Shown here in pieces: positions 9,843-64,000 of a stretch of DNA of 64,000 nt. Origin of the DNA: Sporopachydermia quercuum (Eukaryota); assembly GCA_001599295.1 (NCBI GenBank), contig BCGN01000006.1, forward strand, positions 372,001-436,000. The letters are read 5' to 3'. Under the pieces are notes generated by a model. That model was given only the letters and a program-made list of their open reading frames with translations, was not told the origin of the DNA and did not search any database. Made by a program: the position numbers and the translations under genes. Positions within the stretch are counted from its first letter, which is position 1; every line of letters starts with the position of its first letter.

Positions 9843-9851
9843 ATGACTCAT
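9843..9851. promoter_or_regulatory. Consensus Gcn4/AP-1 site upstream of GDH2
   Basis: ATGACTCAT. Identical or equivalent sites occur at 1153-1161 and 27797-27805 (GTGAGTCAT). Function not shown. Confidence 0.4.
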
Positions 9852-36564: not shown

Positions 36565-36923
36565 AGTAAAGTTTGGCCGTTGATTACTCAAAGTGAGTGA
36601 ATGACAAATTCAATTATTATCCCCAGTCGAGCTCAACTCATATATTACCAGGTTCAAATACTAGAGACGAAAACATATATAAAGGATGGTAAGTCTTGTA
36701 CTTGAAGAGAAAGAGGCACTGAAAGATAAGAAAATAAACAGAAAACATTATTAGAGACAGGGTTAGTTCTGTTGGTTACCTTTTATTGTAGAGATAGTTC
36801 CACAGCAGGTGACTTACGCTTAGATCGATATTCTTTGATTCAAATTCGATAACAAAGAATTAGCTATTCTAACGCAACGAATAGTGAAAAACGTTCATAT
36901 CATTAAGCCAGAACGACGAATAT

Positions 36924-42638: not shown

Positions 42639-43728
42639 GACGACAACCTTGGTTGTTTGAGCTAATCTTTCATTGAAGTGTAATACCTATACCAAGTAAG
42701 ATAAACTCTCTAAACGTGTAAGAATGAATGTGTCTTTCTGTGATTGATTATTCCACTAATGTATGACTAACTACAACAAGCAGAGCTTATTACACAACTT
42801 TAAAGCAAACCATCAAACAATTGTTCATTTGATTTGCTAGATTCGAACCTCACAGCTAATAACCAATGGTAAAAGTGAAAGAGTATTGACATGGCTCTAA
42901 CCCATTATATAACTAACTCTAAGAGAAGTAACCGATGAATCTACATGGGGGTAAAATAAGGTTTATGCAAAGCGAATGTAAAGTTAAACGTAATCTCGAT
43001 TAACTATATCTTCACATCATTTGACTTGCTTTCATTTTCCTGCAACAAGGAGTAAAATCTACTTAATCTGTTAATTAACTATGAATACAATAAAGTAGCT
43101 GTGTGTGAAATTCTTGGTATATCCTTATCGTTGTGACTCTTTGCTTTGTTTTTAATATTTGCTAATTATTCGGTAATTTGAGTTTGACATTCCTTAATAG
43201 TAACCATAAGTAAACTCTAAGTGGCTAGGATTATCAACAGCCCTGATTTGAGACCAGTTGCTATCTCTTGGAGAACCATGTCAACAGATAGATCTCTTTG
43301 TCCAACCAATTGACGTCAATGATGGCATAGAAACGAGTACACTTCAAACGAACAAGTATGAAAAATAAAAATATTCTACGGTTGGTCATTAGAATTGATG
43401 TATATACTTAGGTCTTCTTGCTTTGAATCCCATGGCGATTGAAAGCAATCTCTGACAGACTTCTTATCAATCGCGCATCATATATATCATCAGTATCTCA
43501 GAGAAACGATCACATGCTACTATTTGAATACTTCGTTCACATTAACAGCAAACTAGTAGCAGAACTCGTTTTGGGTACTAAGGAAGGAGAAAGTAAAGTT
43601 TGGACCGAAATATTTTCATGAATATGTTTTTGATTGGCATATTCATAGTATTTGCATAATTCCCTTGACTAGTGGTGATAAAGCAAAAAACCAACTGTGA
43701 GGTGACTTCGGCCCGGTAAATCCTCACT

Positions 43729-45690
43729 ATGAAAGACATTGTAGAACAGTATATTGAACCAAACCTCAGAGATATTCCAATACATCCATTTCAGCCGTTA
43801 CCAGCACATGCAACTACTGGTATAACTCAAACCACAGTAACAGTTGAAGAAGAACGAGCTGAGTTTGATCAACATGATGATGTCTTTCAAGAGCATTCAT
43901 TCTATAACGACGATGATGAGCCAACCTCACCAGAACAGATATCAAGAACTTCTAAGCCTACGTTGACTGTTTTTACTGAAAGTGGGAATAGTAAAGATAT
44001 GATGGAGACACTATCAGAAGCAATCGAAGATGGTAATGATGGTGCAGAATTTTCTAATAGTCATACTTTGAAGTCAGAATTCTCTTCATCACCATTTGAT
44101 GAGGTTATGCTTGAGGCGGATATTGAAATAGAAGCGCCAGATGATGGTGATGGTACGTTAGAAATTTGATACTGATACTACTTTATATAAGTGACATTTG
44201 GACTAACAAGCATTTTGCTAATGTATACAGATACCCAGGAGTTTCTCAAGCGGCAGAAACAATATTTTATACTATCTTCTGCTGGAAAACCAATATATTC
44301 AACACATGGGTCGGATCAAGTGATATCTGCGTATATGGGGGTAATACAAACCGTGGTAGCTTATTTTGAATCACCTGAAGAGGGTGAAGATACAATACAG
44401 TAAGTATTCTAATATTTACAAATCTGAATGGCTAGATAAAACATAGTGTTTTTATACTAATCGCCTTCTTTTAGATGTGTTCGAGCTGGCTCAACTATTT
44501 TTGTTTTTCAGCATAAGCCTTATATTATTTTACTAGCTATCTCATCGATTGGAGAAACAGAAAGACAATTAATACAGCAACTTGACATGCTCTACAGCTA
44601 TCTTCTATCAACACTCTCCAAACCTCAAATATCTCGTGTTTTTCAGAATCGTGATAATTTTGACTTGAGAAGACTTTTGGGTAAAGCAGATACAGCTTGC
44701 CTGGATGCTCTCAGTGTGGATATGGGTACTATAGGAAATACTGGAATTACTCTTGGTGCTCTTGAATGTCTTTATTTACAGAAAAGTGTCAGGGAGAGAA
44801 TTCATAACTTGATGCTAGAGAAGAGATCTAAGACATTGTTGTATGGAATAATTGTTGCCCCTCGCGGAAGACTTATTAGCGTCTTAAGGCCTAAGCGACA
44901 TAAACTACACACAGCAGATTTACAGTTACTATTTTCCATGGTGTTCAACACTAACATTTTTAATCAACATGACTCGTTGATCTCATCAGACACAACTTCC
45001 GTTGACAAAAACGACAATGAAGAATACTGGGTACCCATATGTTTGCCAAAATTCAACGCCAATGGATTTGTCTATTGTTACGTTAGTTTTCTTGACTCTT
45101 CTGTTAGAGTTCCCCATGAATTCAATGAATTGGATGGTTACCCAAAAGTTGACAAAACAGCGATGGTACTAATAAGTGCCGAGAAAGACTCATTTTTCGA
45201 AATGAAGGAAATAAAGTCTAAGATATACGAGCGACTTGTGAAAGAAAACATAATGAAAGCTATAAACGACTCACTAGCAAAAGGAAGATTTTCCCCTCTA
45301 GATATTCCTATACCTTTGGTAAGACACTTCATATACAAGAACAAAAGTAACTTACAATTCATTTCTTCTTCTTTTAAGCCTCATTTCGAGTCTTTAAAAT
45401 CAAGACGTGTACTGAACATACTTTACTCTAAATTGCATGATTTGACTCACAATGCAAAAAAATTAGGTTCTAATGCAGTTCAATCTCGTGCTGCCTATGC
45501 AAAGTGGAGGGGGAAAGTGAAGGGAGGAGGCCTTTCAGGATTGGCATGGGTGACACCAAAGTTTGAACTATATTTAATAACAGGAAGTTTGGTACGGAAA
45601 GATATGTTAGCTCAGAGTGCTCGTTCAATCACCGAATGGGTAAATAAATATGAGCAAAGAATATTTGTAACAAATGGAGCAATCTTCTGA
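43729..45690 (+). CDS. MON1: Mon1, subunit of the Mon1-Ccz1 Ypt7 GEF; exons 43729-44152, 44231-44399, 44475-45690
   Basis: Acidic N-terminus, then KQYFILSSAGKPIYS, NFDLRRLL, LRPKRHKLHTADLQLLF, WVPICLPKFNANGF and a C-terminal RIFVTNGAIF. Introns are GTACGT..CAG and GTAAGT..TAG. Confidence 0.92.
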
Positions 45691-45929
45691 ATAATAGAGT
45701 CCACTGATATAGGGAAATTAAAATAGGAAAAATGATGAGCTGAATAACAAAAGGTGTTATTGCTATAGATTATGTTTACGGCATTTGTTGAGAATGAAGA
45801 AGTATTTGTATATTTGTATAATCTCATTAAAAACTATGTATGATATGATGGAAAATGAAATATATCTCCTTTGGTAATATCTTCTGTTCATGAAAGGAAA
45901 AAGTACTTTGGCGTGGTGAGAACGAAGAA

Positions 45930-48143
45930 CTAAGACCTTCTGGGTGTTTTGTAAACAATGTTTCTATTAACTGCTGTCGATCTCCTCTTCTTAGCACCCT
46001 TAATGTTATCATATTCTTTATCAACAGTCCTCCTATTAGGTTTAGACTTCCTTTTGAGAGACTTCTCGTTCAGTAGAATCTTATCCTCATAGACAACTGC
46101 GTCTTTCAACTCAGAAGATATGTTTTCTGAAGATTCACTGATATCCATTGTTTCTGCAACCATTTCTCCGACGGTTTTATTTGTTCCACGTTTCCTAATA
46201 ATAACCGGTCCAGTTACGCTAGGCTTTTCATTATCATCAATTTTACCAACTCCAACAGTTGACTCTTCTGTTGGTGAAATGAATGGATTCTGCATTAACT
46301 TCGAATTTATTATATTCAAAGTTGACAACTTTTGAAGTGCACTCACTGTTGCTCTATCAACTTCTGCTGATGAATCATTCGTACTATACACTTTACCCTT
46401 ATCTTCTGAAACGTTAATCAAACATTCAATTTGAACAGATGGATAGCTTTTCGGTTCAGACCGTAAAAAAAATAATGAACTAGACTTTAGGAAGTTGCTA
46501 ACAGAAACAACTACGTTATTTCTAGAATCTGAATGTTTAGAGTTCATGTCTTCCTTGATATCTATGTCCTCTTCAATAGCTTTCTCTCCAAACGCTCTGA
46601 TGAGCGACGCAATCTCTTTACTATAACGCCGAACATGAGCGGTGATATTATTACTCACAGATAACACACCTGAAACATCAACAGGCATAGATGACACTAA
46701 CGACACCAGTAGTTGATTTGGCATCACATATCTAACAGACTCATCATCTTTCCTTGCCCTTGAGTCTCTCCATTCAACCAGTTCTTTCACAAGCTGTGTC
46801 TTAGATTTAGGTATGTTATACTGATACGATAGACGCAACCATGAATCACCAGAAGTCTCAAAACTATTCTGCCTGGTATTTTGAAATTCACTTTGATATT
46901 TCTTGAATTCAGTGTACTCAAATCTCTTTAATGCTACTCCTCTAGAATCGTAAAGCACATCTTGTAGCTTTTTCTTAAGTATCAATTCATTCCTCATACA
47001 GTCGTAGATATATAACAGAAAATGAGTATCTGATCGGGCATAGCTCATCATTTTTTCAGGCAAGGGCCTAATTCTCCAATCTGCCAGTTGATACTTTTTG
47101 GATGTTTTGAATCTCACATAATGTTCTAATAGGTAAGCTAAACTAAACTTAGGTAAACCCAAAGCCTTAGATGCATGAAATGTATCGAATAAACTAACAA
47201 CATAAATACCCAAATCCCTTTGTAACCAAACAATATCCATAAATGCACCGTGAAAAACTTTGACAATACTGGGATCAGTAAACACCTCGTTCAGTATATG
47301 CAGTTCATCTCTAAGGCTAAGTGTGTCGACAATATAATCCTGTGTTCTTGAACTGATTTGCATTAAACAGACTATCCCATAGTAACTTCTATAATCATGA
47401 TGTTCTAAATCAACAGCTATTTCTGTTTCTTTCTTTAAATCAGTTAACATGGACTCTAGAAGTGAAGAATCATTCACCCATATAGCCGATGTATTTTCCC
47501 ACCGTTGAGATTTCACTGGTTTTTCCTGCTGGAATATTGATTCTGGATAAGGTTGATTCTTGATTTCCATTGAGTAAGGATGAGGAAAATATGGGTGATT
47601 GTTGTGATCCACATCAACAAGTTTCACACTCTCTTCAAAAGGTATTAGTGCATGTCGTTTGGAAGTAATCAGTGGCTTAAAAGGATGTTGGTCATTGTTA
47701 TCAAGCCTGCTCTTGAACTTTAGTTGCGGTTTCTCCATCTTTTCATGAATAACTGCTTTATCATCACTCCCTGTATCAAGGTAGGTATAGGATGTATCAT
47801 TGCTAGAACCTCCTGATTTTCTCTTCTTATATTGATCCAGAGCTATATCTGAAGCTTCGAAAAGTCCGTCTAGCGTTTCATTTATCTTTGGCCAAGAACT
47901 CTCAAGCCCTCCATCTGAGATTCTCAATACTCCCTTATCGGTACTTCCTAATTCATGTGAGCTTTTAGCATTATTGATCAAGGTATTTGCTAGATCTAAG
48001 ATACCATTCGCACACACGTCAATATTTTCAGCTGTGTCAGGATCAATCTGTTTGAGAAACTTAACATCTTGAGATGCCAATGCACTTGAGGCTCTAACTG
48101 TTGTCATGAGCCCCATTAGAAGAGGTTTCAATTTTTCATCCAT
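45930..48143 (-). CDS. RRP6: Nuclear exosome 3'-5' exonuclease Rrp6
   Basis: IAVDLEHHDYRSYYGIVCLMQIS, FHGAFMDIVWLQRD, YQLADWRIRPL, YARSDTHFLL and the HRDC motif DESVRYVMPN. The first ATG is at 48143. Confidence 0.96.
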   Translation of the reverse strand: MDEKLKPLLMGLMTTVRASSALASQDVKFLKQIDPDTAENIDVCANGILDLANTLINNAKSSHELGSTDKGVLRISDGGLESSWPKINETLDGLFEASDIALDQYKKRKSGGSSNDTSYTYLDTGSDDKAVIHEKMEKPQLKFKSRLDNNDQHPFKPLITSKRHALIPFEESVKLVDVDHNNHPYFPHPYSMEIKNQPYPESIFQQEKPVKSQRWENTSAIWVNDSSLLESMLTDLKKETEIAVDLEHHDYRSYYGIVCLMQISSRTQDYIVDTLSLRDELHILNEVFTDPSIVKVFHGAFMDIVWLQRDLGIYVVSLFDTFHASKALGLPKFSLAYLLEHYVRFKTSKKYQLADWRIRPLPEKMMSYARSDTHFLLYIYDCMRNELILKKKLQDVLYDSRGVALKRFEYTEFKKYQSEFQNTRQNSFETSGDSWLRLSYQYNIPKSKTQLVKELVEWRDSRARKDDESVRYVMPNQLLVSLVSSMPVDVSGVLSVSNNITAHVRRYSKEIASLIRAFGEKAIEEDIDIKEDMNSKHSDSRNNVVVSVSNFLKSSSLFFLRSEPKSYPSVQIECLINVSEDKGKVYSTNDSSAEVDRATVSALQKLSTLNIINSKLMQNPFISPTEESTVGVGKIDDNEKPSVTGPVIIRKRGTNKTVGEMVAETMDISESSENISSELKDAVVYEDKILLNEKSLKRKSKPNRRTVDKEYDNIKGAKKRRSTAVNRNIVYKTPRRS

Positions 48144-49077
48144 TCTCAAAGACTAGAACAAAACTGATGTTCTCTTCTCAATATCAAGTATGTTACAGTC
48201 GTGACAATGTGGAAAGTAATTCACAGTTGAGTATTTGTATTCGCTTTCCTTTCTTTACGTTTCTATCCCACAGCTACTTTCTTTCCAATTCATGCCATAT
48301 TCAGTCAATTTATAACCTCAGCAACAAAGTCAATTAAAGACTTATAGATCTTCCTCAGGTTTTCAACAATAATATATTACTTGATTTCAATATGAAAAAG
48401 TACTTTTTTTCCTCAACTACCTTTTACTTTACAACAGAAAGCTTTCTATCTGCCTGGAAACGTAAGTGCCTAATAGAAATAACTTTTGTTCATGTTACCC
48501 GGAACTACACTGAAGTGAGATGTAATGGTTCGAATTCAAGTCAGGAGAATAATTTTTTTTTTTTTTTGGGTGGGCGTCCAACAAGATACCACCAACTGTT
48601 TCTTTTCCGGCTATTCTAACAGTGCACTAATCAAAAATATAATAGGGTACGTGCAAAAAGGCGTCTGTTCTCTGATAATGCAAGCTATCTCTATTTTCTC
48701 GGGATTATCAATAACAAGCCAACTAACTCTTTGAGTCGATATTCAGTATGACGCGAATTGATAAGAAAGAAGTAAACGAAGAGTTTCCTATTTGAGCTGT
48801 GTGAAGTCCCATAATGACATGTAGAGATTGAAGATAGTTGGTTGTTGGGTCAGATAAATGTTGGAATGGAGGAATATGCTAAAGATTTTTTAAGAGAAAG
48901 ATATATATGAAGATGATATTTGAGAAGTAGTTCAATAAAATCCAGAAAGTGAGAGTAAATTTTGGGACCGAAAACTTTTCCTTTTGAGTCAATTGAATGG
49001 AATTTAAAACCAACCAACCAATTGAATCTTCTAATGGTGAGAGTAATGGAGTAAGGGTCTCTTAAAATCGTATTGCT

Positions 49078-50383
49078 ATGACGAGCGATTTATCGACATC
49101 TCAATCAGTAGAAACATTTGACGGGGCTTCAATTAATATAAAGCACCGGAGAAGCCCTAGTACAACAGCATGTAATAACGAGACTGAAAGATCGACTTTG
49201 CTGTCTAAAACAGTAGTAAGTAGAATATGCAAGCTCTCTATGCCACTGAACACCACGTGGAAGAGACGATATTTCTTCGAGTGGTGATGATAGATCAGGA
49301 ATCATTAATTAACATGATGAATTTAGCACAAATTTGAAGAAAAATTGATTCATACCTGGCACGAAATTCCCGTGTGGCAACAAGATAATCACTATATATT
49401 ATCAGGCTATATAAAGGAAACTAAAAGCTTCAAAAAGTGTATTCACTCTTTACTATTCTTGCACAATGAAACGGGTATGTAACGTTATATACTATCTTGA
49501 GTTTTCAATTCAAAAGATTTACTGACACATAATAGGCAACATTTACTCGCATTTGATACCGTCTCTCGTTTACCTTGGATGTGCTGTTCTTGGGTGGAAC
49601 TTTCTGGTTGAAAAGTACCCTACTACTTCTTTTGAGGACTTCATGATGTACTTTTTTTTTTTTTCGGGCGCTGCGNTGTGTCTAGGTTGTAGTAGCGCTT
49701 TTCATTGTTTCAAATGTCATTCAGAACATGTATCAAAGATTGGAAATAAGCTCGATTACCTGGGAATAGTCTTTCTGATAGTTGGTTCTTCAATCGGTAT
49801 AATTTATTATGGATTCATCAATGAGCCAAAATACCAAATATTCTTCATGGGGCTAACTATAAGCTTGGGTGGTGTATGCGCTGTAGTGAGTCTCAATAGT
49901 ATGTTTTCCCATCATACGTGGAGACCTTTCAGAGCCGCCATGTTTATTTTGTTCGGGCTTTCAGCAGTATTTCCTGTGATTACTGGCATATGTTTGTATG
50001 GAGTATGTGAAAATTTGAGTATTAACTTCACTTTCTGATTGCACAGCTAACATTGATTGTTATTTTAGTACGAGGAGTCCAGAAAAAGAGCCCAACTTCC
50101 TTACGTTTTTGCAGAGGGTGTTCTATACATATCTGGAGCATTACTGTATGCTTTAAGAATACCAGAGAGGTTCAAGCCAGGAAGTAAGTATATTCTATGT
50201 GACAACATCTATTTCATAATAAGAATTACTAACATTTCGGCAGGATTTGATTTCTGGGGTCATTCGCATCAGCTTTTTCATGTACTAGTAGTTGCAGCAA
50301 GTATATCGCATATGTTAGCGCTTCTTTTTGCTTATCAGTATGCACATGAGACTTCTCTTAACGCAATTGACAGTCTAGATTGA
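49078..50383 (+). CDS. IZH2: PAQR/hemolysin-III family protein Izh1/Izh2; 5 exons: 49078-49215, 49327-49474, 49536-50002, 50069-50183, 50244-50383
   Basis: [76 protein letters not shown]. IZH1 versus IZH2 orthology is not resolved; IZH2 is preferred only because of the linkage to RRP6 and PHO80. Confidence 0.8.
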
Positions 50384-50994
50384 TTATGGCTGAAAGAGTG
50401 ACCAGTCTAAGTCTGAATCGAAAAAGAACAAGTAATACAATTATCCTGACGATAGACCATAATTCAGCCAAAGGGATAGACGTTTCTGTTATCCAAACAT
50501 TTGAGTGCTCAACTGTTCCAAAGGCTTAGTACAATCTGCTCAACATGTGGTATGTTTATACTGGAAAAGTCGATGCTCGGTGCTAACAGGTGTCACTAAA
50601 TAGGTTTGACTTGAAAATAGAAGCATTAGTTTTATTCGTGTAACTGAATTTATAAATTCTTCGTCGAGCGATGATGAACTCAACTTCGAATCAAGCACCA
50701 ACGGAGAAAATGAATATAAATGGAATAATCCTTCAATATGATCATATCATGTTCAATCCCTTCATAAAACTATTTAATTTATCTATATTGCATAGAAGCT
50801 TCACTATCCATATAGCGACTTTACTTATAGTAAGATATATAGATCAAGAGGTCCCTATATTATACTGGTTAGAAGAATTTAAATAAAGTGTCCCATGAAT
50901 CGGGCCTAATAATATGAATTACTATCAAAATGACTATTATGACATAAATGTAAGCACGAACCTATAAGTGATTTGATCTCCCTGAGTGGTCTTC

Positions 50995-51260
50995 AACGAA
51001 ATACGATATTGTTAAGCTTTTGTAAAGCATTTGTAAAGCAAAACCCTTGCACTTCTTCTTGTTGTTCAAACATTCAAATGGAGAACCGGCCAACAATTGA
51101 CTTCTCAATTTCTTGAGTTTTCAGTTCTTGCAGAAATTTCATATCTCTAGAAGCAAGCATAGGCCAAGTAAGTAAATCTTTACCATAACCTTTGCGTTTC
51201 AAATCATAAAACAGAGCAGAGTTCGTTTGAACGTATGAACTCAAGGCGATTGATTGGTAT
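50995..51260 (-). mobile_element. Probable decayed gag C-terminus of an LTR retrotransposon
   Basis: About 60 open codons (SALFYDLKRKGYGKDLLTWPMLASRDMKFLQELK...), a stop, then with one frameshift C-Y-K-C-F-T-K-A-*-Q-Y-R-I-S. This has CX2CX4HX4C spacing with the H and the last C mutated. Confidence 0.35.
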
Positions 51261-54225
51261 CAAACTGAGGAATTAGCTGCTATCCTCGTCACTTAACTCT
51301 ATGTATACAATAATTGTCTTACTTACTAATTGATTGGGCCATTCAAATACGATTCCTCAGTTCTCCTGCTTTCCGTATAATGGAGAGCTGGCACTCGAAT
51401 AAAATGAACACAGTTCAAAAGTTGTTTTTATCAACAAATGTGGATATATATGTAACTGAACTTACAAAAATGTACTAGTTTATCAAATTAGTTAACTGGT
51501 CGAATAGAAATTTTTTTGAAATAAATTCATCCCAATAAGAAGCTACTAGACTATGTTTGAGTTTGTACTTCAGTCATTCATTCCTTCATTTTATTAGTAT
51601 TATTATTAAATTTTTCTTTTTCTTTCCTAGAAATAATTAATTTAAAACAAATTCAAATGAAATCCAGAATTTTCTTTAACTTACAAACTTACATAGTCGG
51701 TAGTAGTTTGTTGCCATATATTCAAGATATTTTATTCCCCACCCATATCATCTCATTTGACTTGCCTATTAGTTGCGCTATTTGAGCCTTGAAACTTGAG
51801 AGCTAATTAATTCCTCACGGTCCCCTTGAAAACCCTAGCAGCTATGAGAAGCGGATCATATAATTTTGCTGATTTGGAGTTTAAAAAATTGAATGAGACA
51901 CACGATGATANAGATTAAGGCAGTCTTGTCGAAAAGTAGAATTTGAACTGATAGAACAGAACAGAACATTTTCAAAACATTTAAACAAGTAATTAAGTAC
52001 AATACGCTACATTTAACTATGAATATGATCAACAACAAATGTACAGCCAGCTTAGCTGCCTCCTGAATCAAACAAGCTATTCTAAAGAGTCAAAGAGAAA
52101 GATAGAATGAAAGACTAGAATTTGAACCTAAAAAAAGTCAGTTTACTTTACGGGAAAGTTAACTTGTTCCATCTTTTAGGCATCGTTTCCTGCATCCATA
52201 AATTAACCACAAGTCAAAATAAAATATAGGAGTTTGTTAGCGAGATGGTGATGAGGAATAAATAGTCAAATCCTTAACTTCACCATCGACAGGAGTGCAG
52301 GGATGCTTGAAGATATGATGACCTTCTATTAATTTCAACTGATCTAGATAGATAGTACATATAGGGCAAGAAGACAGAGAGAAATTGGTAAATTACAAAC
52401 CGATAAAAAGGTATGTAAATTAGTTCTTGTGGCTAAGGCAATGTCTGGAAATGAGATAAATAAAAAGGAATACTAAGCTGCGGACTCTANATAAATATTC
52501 TAGTAGAATATAGCTGCACATATAATGAAGAGTGTTGTAAATGAATATTCTACTACGTTCTGTGTTAGTTGTAATGGAAGACTTGTTGATGAAATGACCG
52601 CGCACCTCCACCTTCATTGCCAGAGAAAATGACTTTTCTGCAGAGAAGCCAGGAGAATGAGCATATAATTTTGCGGAGCTATTAATGTTGCATTTGATGT
52701 TATTGAGCGCACAGATGTATTGTTTAGCAGTTGTGAAGGATCAGACCCACCAGTATACCATCATCCAAAAAGTGACAATCAATTACTTTTCACTATCAGG
52801 TCCTTCCTAGCTTCCTATATTATACTCATGTTTCCTCTAACGAATGCATGTGTGTCCCATGTGTGTCCGTGTCCATTGATCAAATGAACAAAAACACAGT
52901 GGTTGAAAGATGAATCTTAAGGGCTTCCTCATAGCTATGACAAAACATGTACTATTTTCTCTACTTCAGTTTTATGACTAATTTTGATTGTTGCGAGATA
53001 TATACCTACTGGCAAGTGGAAGGAAACTACTGATTTTATTGCCTCAAGATATTTCTTATCCTCTTTCTCCATTTAATACGTTGTTTGTATGGATACTGCA
53101 TAGGAGGATTCTAACAGGATTGAAAACCTCTCTAGGAGAGCAAGAACACAATTTGATAGAGTTTTTTAATTCTTTTTCATTTTTTTTTTCATGCACTTCC
53201 TTTAATTTTGTATTAAGGACCTCATCAATAAAATTTTGGGCAGAGGCTATACCAAGTTTCAAGAATGTGCTAAAGGGGCAGTATTGAAACTGAATTTGAT
53301 TATTCATTGTACATTCTTCAAGAAGTTTGTGGCCCATATTTTTGCTAACACTAATCTGACTTATTCTAACTTCTATTTGGTATTGCTAAATAAGTATTCT
53401 AAATGCGTGCTGGTGACATTCAAAATATTAATTCTGGCGTTTAAGAAACCTTATAAGGGCAAATGTAGAAGTGCATCCACGGCTATTAAAAAATCCATTG
53501 TTTAAAGTTGTCCCAAAAACAGAAGAAATTGTACTGTTAGCATGGCTCTAATTTCTAGAAAAAATATCCTTAAGGCACCTAAAGCACAGAAGAAGCATAT
53601 TTCAATCTGAGGTGGACGGTGACTTATCACCATGTATCATGTTATGACAGATATTGCATTTGAACTATACAAATAATTTTACCGAGAGATTTAAAGAGCC
53701 GCATTTACTGTCGTGCATAGTTATTGCCTGGGCAATTGAGCTGTTGTTGTAGTGGCTGCTGTGATATTTAAAACGCCTTTCTAGAATATCTGTCAAACAG
53801 AGTACTTGAATGATTATATCCTTGGACCCTATCCCGGTTGTCGGCCATTTGGTATATTGAAGCCAAAACACTTCTTCACAACACCACTCAGCCCAATAAC
53901 AATAATGATAATTAGTCTTAGAAATTGGAAAATTTCTCTATCTATATAGTAATATAGATAGATAGCGTTGGAAAATAATCCAACTCTAATAAACAAGTTG
54001 TTCTTGCTGAAAATAAAGACTCTGTTGATGATGCTTGTTAATCATCCAGTCTGTTCCTAGATTTGAAATAGTTACTAATAAAATTTGAGAACTAAAGAAG
54101 CGGCAAGTTTATAATTTCTTGAAAAGTAGCTGTTGTTCTGTACACCTTAGTTTTTATAATTCCTTGAGTAAATCTTTTATCTTTTTTTATTGTTTGAACC
54201 GAAGGGTAGAATTCGTAAAGATTAG

Positions 54226-56790
54226 ACTGGAGTTAGACATGGGTATCTGAATGAATATCTATCTGAATAATGCATTAATTTATGGGTAAGTGAGAAGGAT
54301 ATTGGTGGTTTGGAAGTGAAATACTTGACAGTATTAGATGTGATTGTTTCTTTGCGTATTGGGAAAAGACACGCTTCTGCTTGTAAACAATTCCTTCAGC
54401 CCTTTGTATTGGTAGAGCATTAGAACTTGTACACGCTGGTGCTATGTGCCCTTCACTCTAAGGAATGCCAGTGGCCACAAGTAAGCACGGAAGCTTCCTT
54501 GACGACTACTCCACCTTTATATATGAAGTTATATTTGTTGAAGTACAAGTTCGAGGCTCTTGAGAGTTCCAAAATGTATGTTGGCGCTGTAGAGCTGTAT
54601 ACCAGCTCCACATTGGAACCTCTATTATTTATTATATTGGAATGAGTGAAATAAGATTTTACAGCTATCCACACAGTTCAGAGGAATGATACATCGAAAC
54701 GTCTCAATGGAACTTTGAAACATTTAACCAGAGCAAAGCATGATAGACTCTGGTTTGCTAAACATTAATGGTCATTTGTTTTTTGAATTGCGCAGAAACT
54801 GCACTGGTACGGTTTAAAAGAGCAAAACTACATTAGCTTCCTGGGATTACTTCCTTTCTGTGCGGCTCAATAGGCAAAGGCGGTTATTGCTCCAACTGAA
54901 ATACTATAGCTTTCAGCTACTGTGTTCATTCATTATTTGAGAAAGGTTACTTTCACGAATGATAATGATCTTCATTCTAGTACTTTATTGATATTGCTTT
55001 TCTTCCAAACATTTAGTGATTTACTGCTGATCGCTTTGCATGTCATTCATGACAAACTTCAACCAAACTCGCACCTAGGGTGCATTTCTGATTTAACATA
55101 TATCTCCCTAATCTCGGTGAGATGGAGAGATTAATTTAATTCGGTCCGATAAAGTTTAGAACAAAATTACTAGTGTCGGAGTAGTACTATCAAGTACTTT
55201 GCAATATTTTTTTTCAACCCAACATCTTGCTCGCCGAAATAAAATTAAAACTATGGATAGCTTAGCTTAGCTTTGCATGCGGTAGTCAAGCTTTGTTTCT
55301 ATAAGTACCGAAGATCGCAAAGACAAAAGTTCCAATGCAAATCAGTATGTACATTTGTGATGTGATTCGTACTTCGTAGCCGAATGAAATGAGCGTAGAC
55401 TTACCTACTTACCAACTCGTGGGGATTTGAGAAGAAACAAAGTAATGGAGGCTAAGTAACCAGTCAGTGCTTGTTTTTGTGCTTCTGCTTCTATTTAATG
55501 TTAGCTATTAATGTTCTTATTCCCGTATGATATTGAATTATCAATATAGAATTGAAAAAGTTGAATTTGTAAGTGGTGAACTCAGTAGCACTTTGACGTC
55601 TCAGAGATAATCTGTCTTAACTACATCCGTCGGGGGACCCCCAATGTTACTATACCAACTAACTTCGGGCCGATACCATCAGAACTTGCTGCTAGTGCGG
55701 ACCCTGTGCCATTTACTTTTGCTGGCCGGCTGATCGTTTTCACAATTAGAGCCTCGACCCTATTATTGATAACGCAGTTGTTACCATGCGATCTTCATTG
55801 ATAACATTACATTATACATTATGAACAAAAAACTTCAAAGAATATTGTAATTACTCAAGAACGAGCATAATAATATACGCAACTCGTGGCAATTTTTTCC
55901 GTAATAACCGCTAATGCGAACTATATCTGCATGCTATATGATATGGATTTACAGAGCTAAAGTAACTCTGACATATCACTGAACTTTCGTGAAGCACATG
56001 TTGTTGGCCAATAATCATCGCCAACTGGTAGTCAGCTGTCTGATCACCTCTAACAGAATATTTGTCATGCAATGTTAGTCATTCGCCCGGTTAGCGTTGC
56101 TATTTACTAGAACCTCAAATTCCCATTTATAAAAGTCAGACGAATATTTTGTGCCGAAATAGCCTCCTTTCTTGTTGAAACATGATCTTTCCTAAAACAA
56201 TCCCAAAGTTGGATGTATCAATTCCTAATCTTATGGCATATATCTTAGTCTACGGCATTAAATATGTTACTCCTGGTGTTTCTGTAGATGGTATGGTATC
56301 TTGGTTGCAGTTGGATTCAATTCTAAAGCCACCATCTAGGGTAATGTGATTGATATCTTTACAAGTTTTCAAACAAAGAACTTCATAATGCAACTTGCGT
56401 ACCAGGAATTGAAATCCACCAAAATGCAACTGGATTCTCCTATTACAAGAAATATTTGAACAGGTTGATCTTCTCGGTGTAATAAATTTGAACTATACCG
56501 TTGCGGCCTTATTGAACTCCTCAAGCACAAAACTATTAGCCTATTGTTTCTTTAAGACAATTGATTATCTGACTGTCGATAACCTTACTAGCTAATATTT
56601 GATGTGCTTTGTATTTGCCAATAACCTTACGACATTTGATATCGTCCAGCTACTTGGTTTGGTGTTCTACTCCGCTTGCTGCTGAATATAATGAATGATA
56701 AGACATTAATTTAACAAGCTCCTCACTTATTGGTCATTCTGATACTCTCCTGGAGATAAATCCATGTAATCTGCCATTGGTTGTTTATTA
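54226..56790 (+). mobile_element. Heavily degenerate Ty1/copia (Ty5-like) pol relic: integrase, RT, RNase H
   Basis: Motifs occur in order. Integrase: RHGYLNE (HHCC start), RALELVHAG (54414), SFLDDYSTFIY (54492), LYLLKYKFEALE, *VK*DFTAIHTVQRNDTSKRLNGTLKHLTRA, MIDSGL, WYGLK...LLPF. RT: EAHVVGQ/HRQ (~55991), VIRPVSV, FVPK*PPFLL (=YGLKQAPxxW, 56148), PGVSVDGMV (=GVYVDD, 56272), GIEIHQNATGFS..KKYL (56405). RNase H: LIGHSD..GDKSM*SAIG (56726). Many stops, frameshifts and deletions. Confidence 0.88.
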
Positions 56791-57189
56791 TATTATTATT
56801 TTACTCATTTGTGTTCAAGTAAGTATATAGGAGTACACTCTGAGGTTTATCAACTTAGATCGAAATTATTCTTGAACTAGATATTGCACTAGAGAATTCT
56901 GGAAATCATAAGGAAAGTTACAAGGATTTATGGCTATATTTGTTTTTGGTTATAGACCGTATCATATCAGATTCTCAGTAACCATCAACTCTCTTGAACA
57001 TGCCTTGTATTTTTAAAATAAGGAAATTTGGACATATCTGGAATGATAGTCTATATGCCTGAGCTGAACCCTGTAGTTTGTTTGTAGTCAAGAGTGCCGA
57101 AAGAAACGTCTTTGTTTCATCAATTTCAGATAACCCGTGCACAACCTGTAGGCTTGAATTTACTTCCGTAATTGATATCTGATCCTCTC

Positions 57190-57620
57190 CAATAGTAAGT
57201 AAATGGAATTTAGATATTCATACTAAATTAGGGATATACCATATCAAGTTCAAAACCTGTATCCATATATTGTACTACAGTTCTCTCGCTACGCTTGATT
57301 TGCTGTGATAAGGTTGATACCAAAATCCGACGGAAGCACTCTAGGGATTTTATATTTCCTAACATATAACCTCTAACTGTATCTCCCGCATGTTTCTAAT
57401 TTATAGAGTAGTACAATTGTCAACGATACAATTGGCAACTACAATCCGACTGCTCAATCAACTTCAACCTCGTCTTAACTCAAGATTGTAAGCTTATCAT
57501 GCCTACCCCTTCAGGAAATTTTCCTTTCGTTGGCACCAGCTGGCAATGAAGAGGAAGACTTATTATTTCTTAATAAGCTTACCAGATTTCTCATATTGAG
57601 TGTATTGAGCCCGATAATTC
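57190..57620 (+). mobile_element. Possible second integrase N-terminal fragment
   Basis: IHTKLG(h)IPYQV at 57216 (one-base deletion), ICCDKVDTKIRRKH, QLQSD and YYFLISLPDFSY*VY resemble the HHCC finger and the start of the core. Very decayed. Confidence 0.3.
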
Positions 57621-60052
57621 AAATATACACTTTGTCAGAAATACAATTGAAAGATTCACCTTTTCTTCCATCGTGCTTTATATCTCGAGGCTGCTTTTAC
57701 ATACTACACTGTATACAATAGTATTTTTTCCTTTTTTGGTGGAGTTGTAGATAAGCAAAACACGACAATATTAGATAGTAAGATTATATTTTGCAACTTA
57801 ACTTGTATAAGCCTCAATACTAACTAAAAAGAAATAAAAGAAAGAAACAACAACTTGAGGAAGCGATTGTCTTATTCTGTTATCTATACCTAATGATCCT
57901 GGTAATTATGCCTATTCTCTATGCGTTGTTTTCAAGCTCTACTCAATCAGTGAACAACCAACCAAGTTTAGATCCCTAGTTATTTATTGAATGGGCTAGT
58001 AATGTCGTGAAATTTCCCATCGGGTGCTTTAACGCCATCCAGAACATCCTACTGAAAAAATATTAATATTTCTTATAATGAATGATACCTATCAGTAATA
58101 TTGAATGTTTCTGTTCTGTCTTACTTTTGATTCACGTTCAATTTTCTTTTTACCTAGTGAGCAACTTATTAAACTGAAATTCTGATGCTTATGATGTATA
58201 TTTATTAGATGTCATATTTCGATATCTGCCTCCTACTAATGGTTGAAATTTCAATTATAAAATGCGAAATTCATTAATTATATCTTGCTGAAATGGATCT
58301 TAATGGTCTCTCACAACGGTCACTGTCAACGGACATTAAAAGACAATTGTTGTTTAGGTATCGTATAGCTTTCGGAACTAGTTATGAAATGAGTAGAGTA
58401 TAGTATACTCATGTGAGAGTATATTATAGGAGTAAGCTGATACATATAATACATCATGCAATATAATTTATTATTTATGATAAGCTAAGAAGAATTGAAA
58501 AACATAAAAATATTAGCTTTGATCTCTTCATGCCGTCTGTCATGTCATCTTCATTTCATTTATGGTTATTTTGGGTTTCTTTTTCTTTCACGTATCGTAG
58601 CAAAACTATGGAGCGAAATTACACGTCAAATACTCAGATCAAAGTGTTCATTTGTAACTATCTTCTTCTTGAGTCTCAAAAATAAGTGACTCCTACACCC
58701 TATCTGCCTCGATGTTGGAGTTAGGCTATAACTATGACCTTGAAATTTTTAGACACACCCATAAGTATTGATTCATTAAGCACGTATATTTTCTGCTAGT
58801 GAATTTAATGATATCATAAGTTTTTCTTTCCCTTCAGGAAAAAGGAGAACTCTCTAGTTCATAGCTTCAAGACATAGCAAATATGAACAAATCTAGAGTC
58901 AGCGGATTTGGTATACCTCCTCTTCTACTCTAGATAATATAATGTGAAAAGTTCCCCATCTCTCTCCATTTTATTCAGTATCATTAAGCAATCACGTGCT
59001 TCGCGTACGAATGATTTATTTAATAAAAGGACCACTACCGCAAAACGCTTACATTGCTCAAAGACACAACATAAGTTTCAACAGGTCACCTAACGAGGAT
59101 TTGAAGCTACTTACTTAACTTAGAAAGTATTGAGATCTCATTAATCTATCTAAATTTCTCTCATTTTCATTAATTCCTAAAACCACATGGAGTTCCTTCT
59201 TCGCCTCAACTCAGCTTTTGTTAGCAACAACACCTTTGCTAACAAGAATTGGTACTTCTCAATGGCCAGAGGAAGCATCACCATCATCTATCTGCTAGTG
59301 GTCAAATGAGTGAGCTCCTCTGCTGCCAGCTACTATCACAACTCATTCTGCAACTCTTTGAAAATAAACTTGATTTTCCAGCCGAATCCTGAAACACTGC
59401 ACTAATTCTAATTACGTCGTGAAGTACTTTCATCACAATTAGATAAATTAAGTGATAAATCTTGTTCGGAAGGCACGGATTATTTGATTATTGTTTTATA
59501 CAGTCATATTAACATTAATTCCAAAAGCAATTGCCCGCTCGACAGAGATGCTTAGTTCAAATCTTCGAAGTCGGAGAGAGGTGCAATTATTCTGGCTAAG
59601 TCAACAGGTTGTGAGAAAAAATTGACAGAGCAACGTTAACTTGAACATTATTGCAAAAAAAGTGTAGTATGATGTCCTCAGATCGCGATGCCATCCATAT
59701 AAACTATGACATTTATTTGAGGAAGCAAAAGATGAATCAAAATTGGAATTTAGGATGTTTTCATATGTTACAATATGACTGTTTATCCTGGTAAGACAAT
59801 TTTTGGGGCATAATTGCATGCTAATCTATGTTTAATTATTCTTATTGCATTCTTTTGAAATGTTGAGAATGATTTTTCAGTTGTACTGTTATCGAGTTAT
59901 AATAAGTCACATGACTATTTGATACTGGTAACAAGTTTCTATATATTGACTGACTACGTGTTATGGGACTATTGGAATGTGCAAACATTCGAAATTGGTA
60001 CATCTATTTTTTATTACTATATAAGGAAAATTCCAAATCTTTAATACGCGTT

Positions 60053-60460
60053 TTAGTATAGCTTGAACTTCGAGTTTAAGCCTGTTTTGTTTTCCAGCTC
60101 TACCAGTGTAGTGGAAGTAGTACCTGATTTCCAGGGGCATCTGCCTCCTACTATGGGGAATCTTATTTGTAACAAGAAATTAGCCGATTTCATGATTCTA
60201 GTAATATTGTCTTCGTTTGTTGATGTCCTTTTTTCATTTTGTTATGTTCCTGGACAAGATTTTGTACCCAACGATTTTTCAGTTGAATTCATTTGCAAAT
60301 CACTGATCCACCATAGCATTTAATGCAAATCATTCCTGTATCCATCAGGGTCTTGGAGGAGAAGAAAGTACTCTTGCATAAATGTACCTATGTCAATCTC
60401 TGCATCGAAATACTTCACGCGTAGTTTCTGTAGTTTTCTCTTAGTGATTGGTGTTATCAT
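60053..60460 (-). mobile_element. Decayed gag-like relic
   Basis: A 136-codon frame from an ATG with two internal stops. RKLQKLRVKYFDAEIDIGTFMQEYFLLLQD resembles the copia gag helix, and an alternative frame gives CYK*DSP**EAD (broken zinc knuckle). The region is repeated at 58224-58272. Confidence 0.5.
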
Positions 60461-61076
60461 TCAAAATCATCGTATTCATTAATTAATGCAAGACGTTGAA
60501 AATAATACTACCCTTTTGTGTAATTCAACAAAATATTCATGAATCAAAACATTAATGCAAATATATTGTAAGCACCAAAGTCTTCTCCTCCTTTGATTGA
60601 TACTCCCAAAGATTCAAGATAGCATACATCTAAGAATTTAAAGTTCAAGAGTAGTCGCGTTCGACATGAAACCTTGTTTCAAAATCGTTTGAGCTTAGCT
60701 GCAATAGATACGATTGTATTGAGTGCTCAAAAGAAAATCATTTTTGTTCGTTCGTGTTGCAATGGAGGGAGATATTCTTTTTTTGTTCTTCACTGATTTC
60801 TCAAAAGCCATCGAAAATGAGTCTCGAAAAAGTGTCCAAAAGTCAAAATAAAAAATAAAAAATAAAAAAAAAAAGGAAAAAATTGATGATTAAAAAGAGT
60901 TCAATCAATATTGAATCTAGTAAACAGTCAATGCAAGAAATTCAGTGTCGATCTTGTTTGTTTTCTTTGTACAATTCAAAGAAGTGAAAATTACAAGATT
61001 GAAAGAGCAAACAAATAGAAAGCAGAAGTTGTAGTTTCTTTGTAAACAGCACTGAGCTATCTTATTTTGCCACAGG

Positions 61077-64000
61077 ATGTCATATATTGGTGCTGTAGCC
61101 GTTGGGCATATCCCTGATACTGCGTTTACAAAAATCAGACCAGCACCTAGACCACCGGGATACAAGGGAAACATAATCGTTCAGAACTCTCAAGATGCAT
61201 CCAATACTGACGTACCGAGCACTTCACCCCAATCGAATGAGAGATTTTTAGAAGCAAACAAAGGAGACGTTTCACAAAGCCATCAAATCNGTCATTCAAA
61301 TAACTCATCGTCATCTTCAATTGGCAGTTCGGGTTTTGGTTTAGATTTTACAAATGCTACAAAACAGAAAGTTCGAAACTCCAATTCCTTTGATAGAACT
61401 GATAATGTTACAACGAGTAAACCAGTAGATTTACCAGCTTTGAGAACAAGTAATTTACCATCTTCGAGTGGCCCATCTTCGGCTGGTTCAAAAATGAAGA
61501 AAGAAGGATGGGTTTATATCAGAGACGAGAACTCATTACTGCCAACTTGGAATAAACGTTTCATGGTCCTGAAAGGGTCGGTTCTCTATTTGTTAAAACG
61601 TGAACCCTTTGACATAGAAGCTAGTGCTCTGTTTGTTCGCTGGGACGACAATGACTCCGAATTCTATCCTTCACCTCATTTTCAAGAATTGATCTCCGGT
61701 AGTATTCAGCTGAATACAGTGATAACTGCTTTCAGAATCGATAAATCATCAAAAAAGAAGAAATTCTCTTTCCAAATGAAGACCATCAAAAAGCCTGTCA
61801 CTGTTTCTTGCAATACAATGGAAGAAGTCGACGGGTGGATAAATGTGGTCAACTCAAAGTGCTCTGGGTCAACTGTATCTAATCCTTCGAACTTTAGGCA
61901 CGTAGCTCATGTGGGTTTCAACTCATCAACTAATCAATTTTCTGGATTACCAGAAAATATGGAGAAACTTCTGATAGGTTCAAATATTACTGAAGAAGAT
62001 ATGAAAGAAGATCCGAAAGCAGTTGAAGGTGCTCTCAGATTCTTCAACAATTATATTGAGAACGACAATAACATGGGAATGGTCAAAGTAACTGGTGATA
62101 GTACATTACCTACAAATGCTTCTTACACTATTCTCCAAAAAAAGAAGCCTGTAAACCATAACATAATTACCGCAACACCGATCACTCTCAATTCATCACC
62201 TTCTTATCTTGCGGCACCTCAAACTGTTGAACTAAAGAGACCATCTGTCCCGGGTGACAGGTCTCAAAAAACATTCTCGCAATCATCTTTTTTGAATTCA
62301 ACTGCACATACTATAAAATCTCCTGTTGATTTGACAGGTGCTTTTCCTTTCCTTACAAAGGCACCTTGCAAAGGTGGAAATGAAATGAAAAAAGTAACCA
62401 GTTTAAATCCCGGACCAAGACCAGTAAATACGAAGAATCATAGCCAAAGTCCGTTAATGAGGCAGCATCCTAACCAGTTTGCTGACGAAAGGAAAAATAT
62501 AGTAGCTGTTAGGCCGGCTCCTAGAGTACCTGATTTAGGTAAGTCAGCATTGCATCGGCAAGAGCACGGCACTTCCCCTATTAATAGATCGCAACAAAAT
62601 CAACATATGCAGGAACAGAGGATCAATCAAACCACCTACGCTAATCAATACTCTGGTGTGTATAGCCAAACCGCTAAAAATCCAGAAAGTAATCAAACCC
62701 AACATAAGGATCAATTGTCCTTAAAGATTTCAACAAATAATGATCAGCTATATTCTATGTCGAATCCTTACTTGAATTCCCCGTTCAATTCACCATCACC
62801 TGGGGAGAGTAAACCTAGTTTTGAATCCTTCAATGGTAAGGAAAACGTTTACTTACAACGTGAGCCTACAAAACCTCTGCAACCTCTTCGTATTGCACCT
62901 GCTGTGCCAGCTAGTCATTCGGTTACTCACCAAGGCTCGCCCAAAGAAGCATCACCTCTGGCTATTAGAAGGAATGATGCTGATAATGTCCCTTCTTATT
63001 CTCAGAATAATCAAACTCAAGCACTTAAAGTTCATACTGAAGTCAGCAGGACACCAGAAAATCAGACTAATAGAAAAGAAAGTAGTCGATCGGGGTCAAA
63101 TGATGCTAAAAATATGGCTAATCTACGTGCTTTAGTCAATAGGACTGTATTACCTCAAGATTTCTATCAGAGAAAGCAGAAAATTGGACAAGGTGCCTCT
63201 GGGTTAGTTTACGTGGCTGTGACGTTGAAACCTATTAGTATCAATAACACCAAATCTCATTTCAGAGTCGAGAAGCCTGTTGGATCAAAAGTGGCTATTA
63301 AACAAATGGACCTTAGCGCTCAGCCTCGCAAAGAACTTATAGTGAATGAAATTTCTGTAATGAAAGAAAGTCAGCATAAGAATATTGTCAATTTCTTGGA
63401 CTCATTTTTGGTACGAAATGAGAAAGAACTGTGGGTCATTATGGAATATATGGAAGGCGGGTCCTTGACAGATATCATTGAAAATAATCCACCATCTTCT
63501 ATCTCTGAAAGTCAAATGTCATATATCTGTAGAGAGACTGTTGAAGGATTGCGACATCTACATCATAACAATATTATTCATCGCGATATCAAATCCGATA
63601 ATGTTCTGTTAGACTCTAATGGAAATGTTAAGATAACAGATTTTGGTTTCTGCGCTAAATTAACAGGGCAAAGATCTAAGAGGGCTACAATGGTTGGAAC
63701 TCCTTACTGGATGGCACCTGAAGTTATTAGAAGGGACCAATATGATTCTAAAGTTGATGTTTGGTCTCTGGGCATTATGATTATAGAAATGATTCAATCT
63801 GAGCCTCCTTATCTCAACGAGGAACCTTTGAAGGCTTTATACATTATTGCAGCCAAAGGAACACCAAAGCTTGAAAAGCCAGAACTACTAAGTATGGCTC
63901 TAAAGTCGTTTTTGAGTATATGCTTGTGTGTTGATGTGAAATACAGAGCCTCAACTGATGATCTCATCAAACATGAGTTTTTGAGAAAAGCGTGTGATAG
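61077..64000 (+). CDS. CLA4: PAK-family kinase Cla4, 3'-partial
   Basis: The ATG at 61077 is in frame with FTKIRPAPRPP, a PH domain (KKEGWVYIRDE..WNKRFMVL), CRIB (VSNPSNFRHVAHVGF) and the kinase domain (KIGQGASGLVY, VAIKQM, HRDIKSDN, DFG, RATMVGTPYWMAPE). There is no stop before the window end. Confidence 0.95.
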   Translation, partial: MSYIGAVAVGHIPDTAFTKIRPAPRPPGYKGNIIVQNSQDASNTDVPSTSPQSNERFLEANKGDVSQSHQIXHSNNSSSSSIGSSGFGLDFTNATKQKVRNSNSFDRTDNVTTSKPVDLPALRTSNLPSSSGPSSAGSKMKKEGWVYIRDENSLLPTWNKRFMVLKGSVLYLLKREPFDIEASALFVRWDDNDSEFYPSPHFQELISGSIQLNTVITAFRIDKSSKKKKFSFQMKTIKKPVTVSCNTMEEVDGWINVVNSKCSGSTVSNPSNFRHVAHVGFNSSTNQFSGLPENMEKLLIGSNITEEDMKEDPKAVEGALRFFNNYIENDNNMGMVKVTGDSTLPTNASYTILQKKKPVNHNIITATPITLNSSPSYLAAPQTVELKRPSVPGDRSQKTFSQSSFLNSTAHTIKSPVDLTGAFPFLTKAPCKGGNEMKKVTSLNPGPRPVNTKNHSQSPLMRQHPNQFADERKNIVAVRPAPRVPDLGKSALHRQEHGTSPINRSQQNQHMQEQRINQTTYANQYSGVYSQTAKNPESNQTQHKDQLSLKISTNNDQLYSMSNPYLNSPFNSPSPGESKPSFESFNGKENVYLQREPTKPLQPLRIAPAVPASHSVTHQGSPKEASPLAIRRNDADNVPSYSQNNQTQALKVHTEVSRTPENQTNRKESSRSGSNDAKNMANLRALVNRTVLPQDFYQRKQKIGQGASGLVYVAVTLKPISINNTKSHFRVEKPVGSKVAIKQMDLSAQPRKELIVNEISVMKESQHKNIVNFLDSFLVRNEKELWVIMEYMEGGSLTDIIENNPPSSISESQMSYICRETVEGLRHLHHNNIIHRDIKSDNVLLDSNGNVKITDFGFCAKLTGQRSKRATMVGTPYWMAPEVIRRDQYDSKVDVWSLGIMIIEMIQSEPPYLNEEPLKALYIIAAKGTPKLEKPELLSMALKSFLSICLCVDVKYRASTDDLIKHEFLRKACD

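Follow-up and report, generated by a model that had tools for sequence, protein, structure and literature searches.

A 10.7-kb gene-free, single-copy interval near RRP6 and PHO80 in Sporopachydermia quercuum as a candidate centromere-bearing region

A gene-free interval between IZH2-type and CLA4-like genes

A 64,000-nucleotide stretch of the yeast Sporopachydermia quercuum (positions 372,001 to 436,000 of contig BCGN01000006.1, assembly GCA_001599295.1; hereafter the window, with positions counted from its first letter) was analysed around an interval of 10,693 bp at 50384–61076 that has no assigned strand, is non-coding and single-copy, and is a candidate centromere-bearing region. The window has a GC content of about 36% and about 21 recognizable genes. 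On the left, the interval begins directly after the TGA (50381–50383) of an IZH2-type (AdipoR-like, HlyIII) receptor gene on the plus strand (~49078–50383). On the right, it ends at the ATG, at 61077, of a CLA4-like PAK kinase open reading frame (ORF), also on the plus strand, which encodes PH, PBD and kinase domains (61077–63998) and continues past the end of the window. The other 18 inter-ORF stretches of the window measure 239–2883 bp with a median of ~1.3 kb, so that the interval is 3.7 times the size of the next largest and about eight times their median. A desert of this size is therefore unusual in the window, as an earlier note on this DNA had pointed out in remarking that all other gaps were under 3 kb.

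The interval was then examined for coding content. Its longest stop-to-stop ORF is 109 amino acids, an ordinary value given that the maximum in composition-matched random (Markov) sequence averages 108.7 amino acids. A codon-usage log-odds scan in 500-bp bins, trained on the window's own genes, gave scores of –4.2 to 11.4 across the interval, and none of its 22 bins fell within the range of gene bins (12–33, except for a score of 2.0 in bin 49501, which falls in the IZH2-like gene); ordinary intergenic bins scored like those of the interval. There are no tRNA genes in the whole window, and Rfam searches returned no matches at gathering score in the window and none at E ≤ 1 in 50000–61300. Intron-signal candidates numbered 15 in the window, one of them in the interval, compared with a chance expectation of 7.8 ± 2.8 for the whole window. 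With no ORF above 109 amino acids, no Pfam domain, no tRNA, no Rfam RNA and no coding bias, the description of these ~10.7 kb as lacking a host gene stands.

The genes around the interval are unusually rich in introns for a budding yeast, with short introns of ~60 nucleotides and yeast-type signals, and ORF-only lists consequently undercount the genes of this genome. At least three such introns lie in the IZH2-like gene (49475–49535, 50003–50069 and 50184–50243, with GTATGT/GTAAGT ... ACTAAC/ACTGAC/GCTAAC ... AG signals), and positions 8–224 of the Pfam HlyIII profile could be matched across them.

The interval is real, single-copy and correctly assembled, because one contig in each of two runs crosses it at the depth of its flanks. 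In run X1 a single contig covers 49677–63999, and in run X3 a single contig covers 44000–63999, both with depth equal to the flanks. Compared with the window over 20 kb, X3 has a 33-nucleotide insertion near 53003 and a 1-nucleotide insertion at 57384, both within the interval, and both runs show one short joint at 63593–63690, in the CLA4-like gene. The two runs come from two studies, and the assembly may itself derive from one or the other sample; the agreement therefore speaks for consistency and single-copy status rather than for independent confirmation. The contig sets of the runs that contain the sequence total ~17 Mb. Single N positions occur at 19 places in the window, two of them inside the interval.

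The interval lies in the neighbourhood of an ancestral centromere

The window contains orthologues of YPT7 (Rab7; 4458–5075, minus strand; PDB matches to Rab7 at 3e-107 and to S. cerevisiae Ypt7 at 4e-83), PHO80 (7959–9050, plus strand; Pfam Cyclin PF08613, with S. cerevisiae Pho80 as sole PDB match, at 3e-57) and RRP6 (45930–48143, minus strand; Pfam PMC2NT, 3'-5' exonuclease and HRDC domains), in addition to the IZH2-type gene. The positions of these genes in relatives were inferred from locus tags in the tables of homologues. Matches to RRP6 include 'YOR001W RRP6', E. gossypii ACL001C, Ecym_3030, LALA0_S08e01288g, LAFA_0F02080g, ZYRO0C07678, HG535_0G02900, HG537_0G04560 and Kpol_1037p29, while those to PHO80 include 'YOL001W PHO80', ACR001C, HCR001C, Ecym_3029, LALA0_S08e01266g, LAFA_0F02058g, ZYRO0C07634, HG535_0G02890, HG537_0G04550 and Kpol_1037p30. 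The IZH2-like gene matched E. sinecaudum HCL002C, among others, and proteins named Izh2 or PHO36.

We take the naming conventions of Ashbya and S. cerevisiae to mean that ACL001C and HCL002C are the first and second genes to the left of CEN3, and ACR001C/HCR001C the first to its right; YPT7 and IZH2 are likewise taken as YML001W and YOL002C, and CEN13 and CEN15 as a duplicated pair of centromeres. On this reading, PHO80 and RRP6 are direct neighbours across a centromere in Eremothecium, Lachancea, Torulaspora, Zygotorulaspora, Zygosaccharomyces and Vanderwaltozyma, and the order in Eremothecium is IZH2-RRP6-CEN-PHO80. The order in the window is YPT7-PHO80-[12 genes, 37 kb]-RRP6-IZH2-interval, with RRP6 inverted in orientation relative to Eremothecium. 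The order thus runs collinear with that of Eremothecium read in reverse, which clearly identifies the region as the orthologous neighbourhood of the ancestral centromere.

Since 12 genes now sit between PHO80 and RRP6, the collinear equivalent of the point centromere would be 9051–45929. The interval adjoins the RRP6-IZH2 pair, with PHO80 and YPT7 41–46 kb distant. The earlier note had named RRP6, PHO80, YPT7 and IZH2 as genes that flank CEN15 and CEN13 and had proposed a position conserved with a point centromere. All four genes, or their type, were indeed found in the window, and the gene neighbourhood is the same; their order, on the other hand, puts the interval beside the point-centromere junction rather than at it, and the positional match is only approximate.

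Apart from this neighbourhood, synteny with S. cerevisiae is apparently kept only in runs of two to three genes. Small common blocks are MRL1-TEF1 (104–3777) and NUP82-(DUF1674 gene)-BNA3-BTN1 (32981–39903), where the S. cerevisiae neighbour relations and systematic names are those we presume to hold.

Retroelement sequences were not detected in the interval

The interval had been described as a retrotransposon graveyard, containing several decayed copia-type fragments in both orientations. Pfam searches (E ≤ 1) of its 99 ORFs of at least 40 amino acids revealed no reverse transcriptase, integrase, protease or gag family; there were 10 weak, unrelated matches in nine ORFs, all under the curated cut-offs. 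The six frames of the interval were also translated through, with stops read as X before the Pfam scan, and again no retroelement family was found; a single match, to DUF4528, scored 17.3 bits against a cut-off of 27. As a positive control, the same read-through procedure was applied to 43600–50387, where it recovered HlyIII (158 bits) across the introns of the IZH2-like gene as well as all three longin domains of MON1. Coding sequence that is interrupted is thus within reach of the method.

Searches at the DNA level gave a similar picture. The longest direct repeat in the interval is 34 nucleotides, and the longest inverted repeat in 48000–64000 is 48 nucleotides at 71% complementarity. Tandem repeats in the interval are confined to five short arrays of at most 39 nucleotides each. 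A sensitive blastn comparison of the interval with the window reached 39.7 bits at best, compared with up to 44 bits among 10 shuffles, and neither k-mer enrichment nor hidden periodicity in the interval rose above shuffles. A Ty5 primer-site motif, taken from the anticodon arm of tRNA-iMet, matched the window five times with up to two mismatches, which is the chance level, and never within the interval.

The copia-type fragments were thus not borne out, with a retroelement domain in none of 99 ORFs and none of six frames and DNA similarity no higher than in shuffles; likewise no retroelement domain, LTR-like (long terminal repeat) sequence or Ty5 primer-site motif was detected in the interval to mark it as a graveyard. 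It is possible that retroelement relics have decayed past the reach of Pfam, which is an assumption and not an observation.

A stop-depleted frame within the interval

One minus-strand frame, at 51856–54108, has 22–23 stops in 750–751 codons, compared with 42–71 stops in each of the other five frames over the same segment, and is possibly the relic of a very old ORF. Four of the longest ORFs of the interval (77, 106, 109 and 90 amino acids) lie in it. No 750-codon window was as stop-poor in any of 300 sequences from a second-order Markov model or in any of 300 block shuffles; the null means were 32.1 (minimum 24) for the former and 35.1 (minimum 26) for the latter. On shorter scales, at 300 codons only 53059–53985, on the minus strand, reached the 5th percentile of shuffles, and at 150 codons no segment of the interval did so. 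The first codon position of the frame is A-rich and the third T-rich, with no GC periodicity.

These data suggest that part of the DNA of the interval was once coding. When the frame, with stops masked as X, was searched exhaustively with phmmer, none of 1.84 billion representative proteins matched it at E ≤ 0.001, and Pfam gave no match. Part of the interval may therefore, on the statistics of its stop codons, descend from one long ORF of no recognized family, whether a retroelement or a host gene. The 33-nucleotide insertion polymorphism in X3 near 53003, which is in-frame in length, sits within this frame.

Composition and centromere-type sequence features

The part of the interval with the lowest GC content is 51300–51900 (no strand; GC 0.27–0.30), which contains the second most AT-rich 120–160-bp stretch of the window (79–83% AT). 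Its AT content is not extreme, because the AT-richest such stretch, at 4236–4400 and outside the interval, reaches 84%. Inspection of 51380–51920 by eye revealed nothing notable, and no CDE-like (centromere DNA element-like) motifs flank the AT-rich stretch.

Sequence features of the known centromere classes were sought. A point or proto-point organization, in which an AT core of ~80–200 bp is flanked by CDEI/CDEIII-like or GCG-type elements, was not found. The inverted-repeat organization of C. tropicalis, Komagataella and Barnettozyma was also absent, the longest pair in 48000–64000 being the 48-nucleotide one given above. The 21-bp centromere motif of Wickerhamomyces anomalus had no match at up to three mismatches. 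Cbf1-type sites (RTCACRTG) numbered eight, two of them inside the interval, which is roughly its chance share. On the other hand, the interval is the largest local gene-free region and consists of unique sequence, as in featureless centromeres. A switch in GC skew near 55.3 kb was considered as an origin-type signal and given no weight, because its sign is opposite to that of an origin-type switch and because the coding regions of the window have no consistent skew.

The interval as a candidate regional centromere

Centromeres of several yeast orders have recently been mapped. According to Hession et al. (2025), Hi-C centromeres of Saccharomycodales and Phaffomycetales are syntenic with seven of the eight ancestral Saccharomycetales centromeres, and centromere neighbourhoods are conserved among these three orders (PMC12711049). 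The same study describes structures that vary from Ty5 clusters, LTR-derived motifs, short motif arrays and inverted repeats to featureless DNA, and places centromeres typically within a large intergenic region; it reports shifts in location of 12–60 kb (PMC12711049). Each Hi-C peak held a large intergenic region, of 3.7–7.9 kb in W. anomalus and 2.2–9.3 kb in W. canadensis; one W. anomalus isolate is described as having no Ty5, and the centromeres of H. menglaensis 'appear to be featureless' (PMC12711049).

We propose that the interval contains the centromere of this chromosome, of the regional kind in which a large intergenic region is featureless, and estimate the probability that it does at about one half, a figure that leans heavily on the rarity of such deserts across the rest of the genome. 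The proposal is made because the neighbourhood is conserved and because published centromeres of neighbouring yeast orders lie in the largest local intergenic regions. Several findings agree with it. The window has one outstanding gene desert, and neither a gene nor an RNA family, intron signals or coding bias explain it. The relative order of YPT7, PHO80, RRP6 and IZH2, all present in the window, is that of Eremothecium, and the desert touches the RRP6-IZH2 pair, which by Eremothecium locus tag corresponds to ACL001C and HCL002C. Its unique, repeat-free sequence matches the unique-sequence type of centromere. Under this proposal, a domain of Cse4/CENP-A would lie over part of the unique DNA of the interval and the centromere would be specified epigenetically; the DNA under Cse4 would have no inverted repeats, satellite, recognizable retroelement or compositional trough.

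Other findings weigh against a centromere at this place. The GC content of the interval, 0.345, compares with 0.29–0.35 in other intergenic DNA and forms no trough within the window, and GC content at third codon positions (GC3) is mid-range for the window in RRP6 (0.317) and CLA4 (0.321). There are no CDE-like arrangements on either strand anywhere in the window, whose AT-richest 80-bp stretch is 86% AT, and neither relics of Ty5 nor inverted repeats nor arrays of motifs were found in the interval. The point-centromere junction PHO80|RRP6 maps to 9051–45929, with the interval two genes past it, beyond RRP6 and IZH2. The interval is also unlike the centromere cores of a further outgroup, Saccharomycopsis schoenii, which are 26–34 kb long, 75–76% AT and contain decayed copia remnants (PMC13148404). 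The GC or GC3 trough that had been suggested as a check did not appear within the 64-kb window, in which genes flanking the interval have mid-range GC3 values of 0.30–0.39. Troughs of the Lynch et al. 2010 type reportedly span tens of kb, a scale that calls for a whole chromosome.

The fuller proposition, that the interval is a working centromere made of unique DNA of ordinary composition, free of repeats and retroelements, two genes off PHO80|RRP6 and in an intron-rich lineage with the standard code, distant from the three orders studied, is one that we put forward only tentatively.

It is also possible that the interval is a gene desert unconnected with a centromere, either neutral remnants of an old insertion or of one or several genes that died long ago or, upstream of the CLA4-like gene, a regulatory region of unusual length, with its location a coincidence. 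We regard this as a serious explanation, if on balance a doubtful one. The composition, density of poly(A/T) tracts and ORF-length spectrum of the interval are like those of the ordinary intergenic DNA of the window, and a search for the sequence features of known centromere classes detected none of them in it. The ~750-codon stop-depleted frame suggests decayed coding sequence, as does a modest excess in the interval of ORFs of 50–70 codons over Markov sequences (57 compared with 39 ± 5, and 21 compared with 8.9 ± 2.8). The entire interval lies upstream of the ATG of the CLA4-like gene, on the same strand, and in Candida albicans some regulator genes have unusually long regulatory regions upstream of them. 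Set against this, the dead gene is itself unproven because the candidate relic has no homologue or Pfam domain, and a desert of such size is out of keeping with the other 18 inter-ORF stretches, all under 3 kb.

A second alternative retains the centromere in this neighbourhood but places it between PHO80 and RRP6, collinear with the point centromere, with the interval as pericentric junk; candidate sites would be the stretches 5076–7958 and 9051–11523, on the PHO80 side of the ancestral junction, away from RRP6. Locus tags put the centromere between these two genes throughout Saccharomycetaceae, the window's two largest intergenic stretches of ordinary kind (2883 bp at 5076–7958 and 2473 bp at 9051–11523) both border PHO80, and the AT-richest 120–160-bp stretch, at 4236–4400, is next to YPT7. 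In related orders, according to the Hi-C study, an intergenic region that carries a centromere can measure as little as 1.1–2.4 kb (PMC12711049). This explanation is nonetheless unlikely. PHO80 and RRP6 are separated by twelve genes, so that the PHO80|RRP6 junction is gone in the window. The orthologues of the twelve are scattered over other S. cerevisiae chromosomes, on the chromosome assignments that we assume for them. Furthermore, neither stretch bordering PHO80 stands out, and 84% AT is unremarkable against a background of ~66–71% AT.

An unrecognized functional gene within the interval, either a many-exon orphan protein gene or a long non-coding RNA such as telomerase RNA, is a still weaker explanation and in our judgement very improbable. 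The genome is intron-rich (at least three introns in the IZH2-like gene, two interruptions in MON1), such that ORF lists undercount genes, and yeast telomerase RNAs are poorly covered by Rfam. On the other hand, the interval has just one intron signal, at chance level, in 10.7 kb; all 22 of its bins have intergenic-like codon-usage scores, and there are no Pfam or Rfam matches. One RNA gene, moreover, would account for just 1–2 kb of it. Finally, an assembly artefact, either a mis-join or a collapsed repeat, would be suggested by the single N positions but has a negligible chance of being correct, given that contigs built separately from two runs cross the whole interval at flank depth and differ from the assembly by two indels in X3 and, in both runs, one joint in the CLA4-like gene.

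The interval is therefore a reasonable candidate for a centromere, here proposed as of the regional kind, but it is not a demonstrable retrotransposon graveyard, and by collinearity it does not lie exactly where the point centromere does.

Comparison with known yeast centromeres

The candidate most closely resembles loci of Wickerhamomyces anomalus, W. canadensis and Hanseniaspora menglaensis, in each of which a single large intergenic region (1.1–9.3 kb) lies by genes linked to centromeres in Saccharomycetaceae (PMC12711049). As in some isolates or species among these three, Ty5, inverted repeats and a shared motif are absent, although for S. quercuum this is judged from one locus. The published loci were mapped by Hi-C and, in H. 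uvarum, by chromatin immunoprecipitation sequencing, whereas the interval is known from sequence alone; it is slightly larger, at 10.7 kb, and does not have the arrays of the 21-bp motif found in W. anomalus. The lineage is not close to the orders of Wickerhamomyces and Hanseniaspora by best matches, its RRP6 being at most 53% identical to anything listed.

The interval is also like the centromeres of Candida albicans and C. dubliniensis, which consist of non-repetitive DNA with no motif, in a 4–18-kb region (a size range quoted by Haase et al., bioRxiv), and which differ in DNA between chromosomes. Those species, however, belong to the CUG-Ser clade and have demonstrated Cse4 binding, whereas in S. 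quercuum CUG encodes Leu and the centromere is a candidate drawn from the DNA. Six of the nine CTG codons of RRP6 fall at columns in which 38–40 of 40 homologues have Leu; CUG is therefore read as Leu, in the standard way, and membership of the CUG-Ser or CUG-Ala clades is unlikely.

Ty5-cluster centromeres, the model of the earlier note, are like the interval in being large, free of genes and close to ancestral centromere-linked genes. They have been described in Debaryomyces hansenii, Scheffersomyces stipitis, Ogataea polymorpha, Cyberlindnera sargentensis, Saccharomycopsis fibuligera and Saccharomycodes ludwigii (PMC13017519; PMC12711049). In those descriptions they contain recognizable Ty5 pseudogenes or LTRs, often more than 90% identical between chromosomes; none were found in the interval, which is single-copy. 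With the point centromeres of Saccharomycetaceae, such as CEN15 of S. cerevisiae, the interval has in common the neighbourhood of YPT7, PHO80, RRP6 and IZH2 in the relative order of Eremothecium. It differs from them in that the window has no CDEI-CDEII-CDEIII-like arrangement, PHO80 and RRP6 are 37 kb apart, and the interval is outside that pair.

In Haase et al. (2026), Ty5-cluster centromeres are argued to be ancestral to Pichiomycetes and Saccharomycetes, with the ancestral centromere-linked genes remaining linked to them, and Ty5 clusters are presented as forerunners of point centromeres (PMC13017519). Hession et al. instead regard Ty5 as 'centromere-associated' rather than 'centromere-making' (PMC12711049). 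The main texts of both papers do not name RRP6, PHO80, YPT7, IZH2 or CLA4, their gene-level maps being in figures and supplements, and a literature search linking RRP6, YPT7 and PHO80 with centromeres retrieved nothing relevant.

If the interval does contain the centromere, conservation of centromere location would extend to another lineage, and a Ty5 cluster would not be a required state at this ancestral site. It would be one more case of yeast centromeres keeping their neighbourhood while their structure changes, as described by Hession et al. (PMC12711049), here with no trace of Ty5, and would bear on the disagreement between that study and the proposal of Haase et al. that Ty5 clusters are ancestral (PMC13017519). 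The general message is already in print, published in 2025–26 in those two papers (PMC12711049, PMC13017519), which reduces the significance claimed for the locus in the earlier note. Because the general idea has been published and the single candidate locus is unverified, the locus is a lead rather than a discovery.

Other genes of the window

At the left end of the window are an MRL1-like gene (104–802) and the gene for eEF1A (2704–3777), both of which look split. To the right of PHO80 follow GDH2 (11524–14796), ATG2 (16247–21718), a Ras-family gene on the minus strand (23246–23830), NPR2 (25336–27216), a gene for an ECM3-like transporter (29117–30601), the gene for mitochondrial L37 on the minus strand (31565–31864), NUP82 (32981–35146), a DUF1674 gene on the minus strand (35410–35832), BNA3 (36924–38330) and a CLN3/BTN1-like gene that starts at 39526 and looks split. 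A minus-strand ORF of 285 amino acids (41781–42638) has no Pfam family but has gene-like codon usage and a candidate intron signal at its 3' edge (41667–41784). MON1 (43729–45690), which encodes three longin domains, is interrupted twice.

RRP6, with at most 53% identity, IZH2, with at most 52%, and PHO80 have their best matches in different yeast orders rather than pointing to one placement of the lineage, and the database may lack its closest relatives. An IZH protein of Ascoidea rubescens is 46% identical to the IZH2-like protein of the window.

Two further observations concern the genes that border the interval. A poly-T tract at 49587–49706, in an exon of the IZH2-like gene, has an N at 49676, and X1 contigs break there into small alternative pieces of differing depth, which suggests that the tract is length-variable or heterozygous. 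At 63574–63724, short pieces of a second contig in both runs match 20–35 nucleotides of the CLA4-like kinase domain with flanks that are unlike it; these probably stem from a PAK kinase paralogue at another site in the genome.

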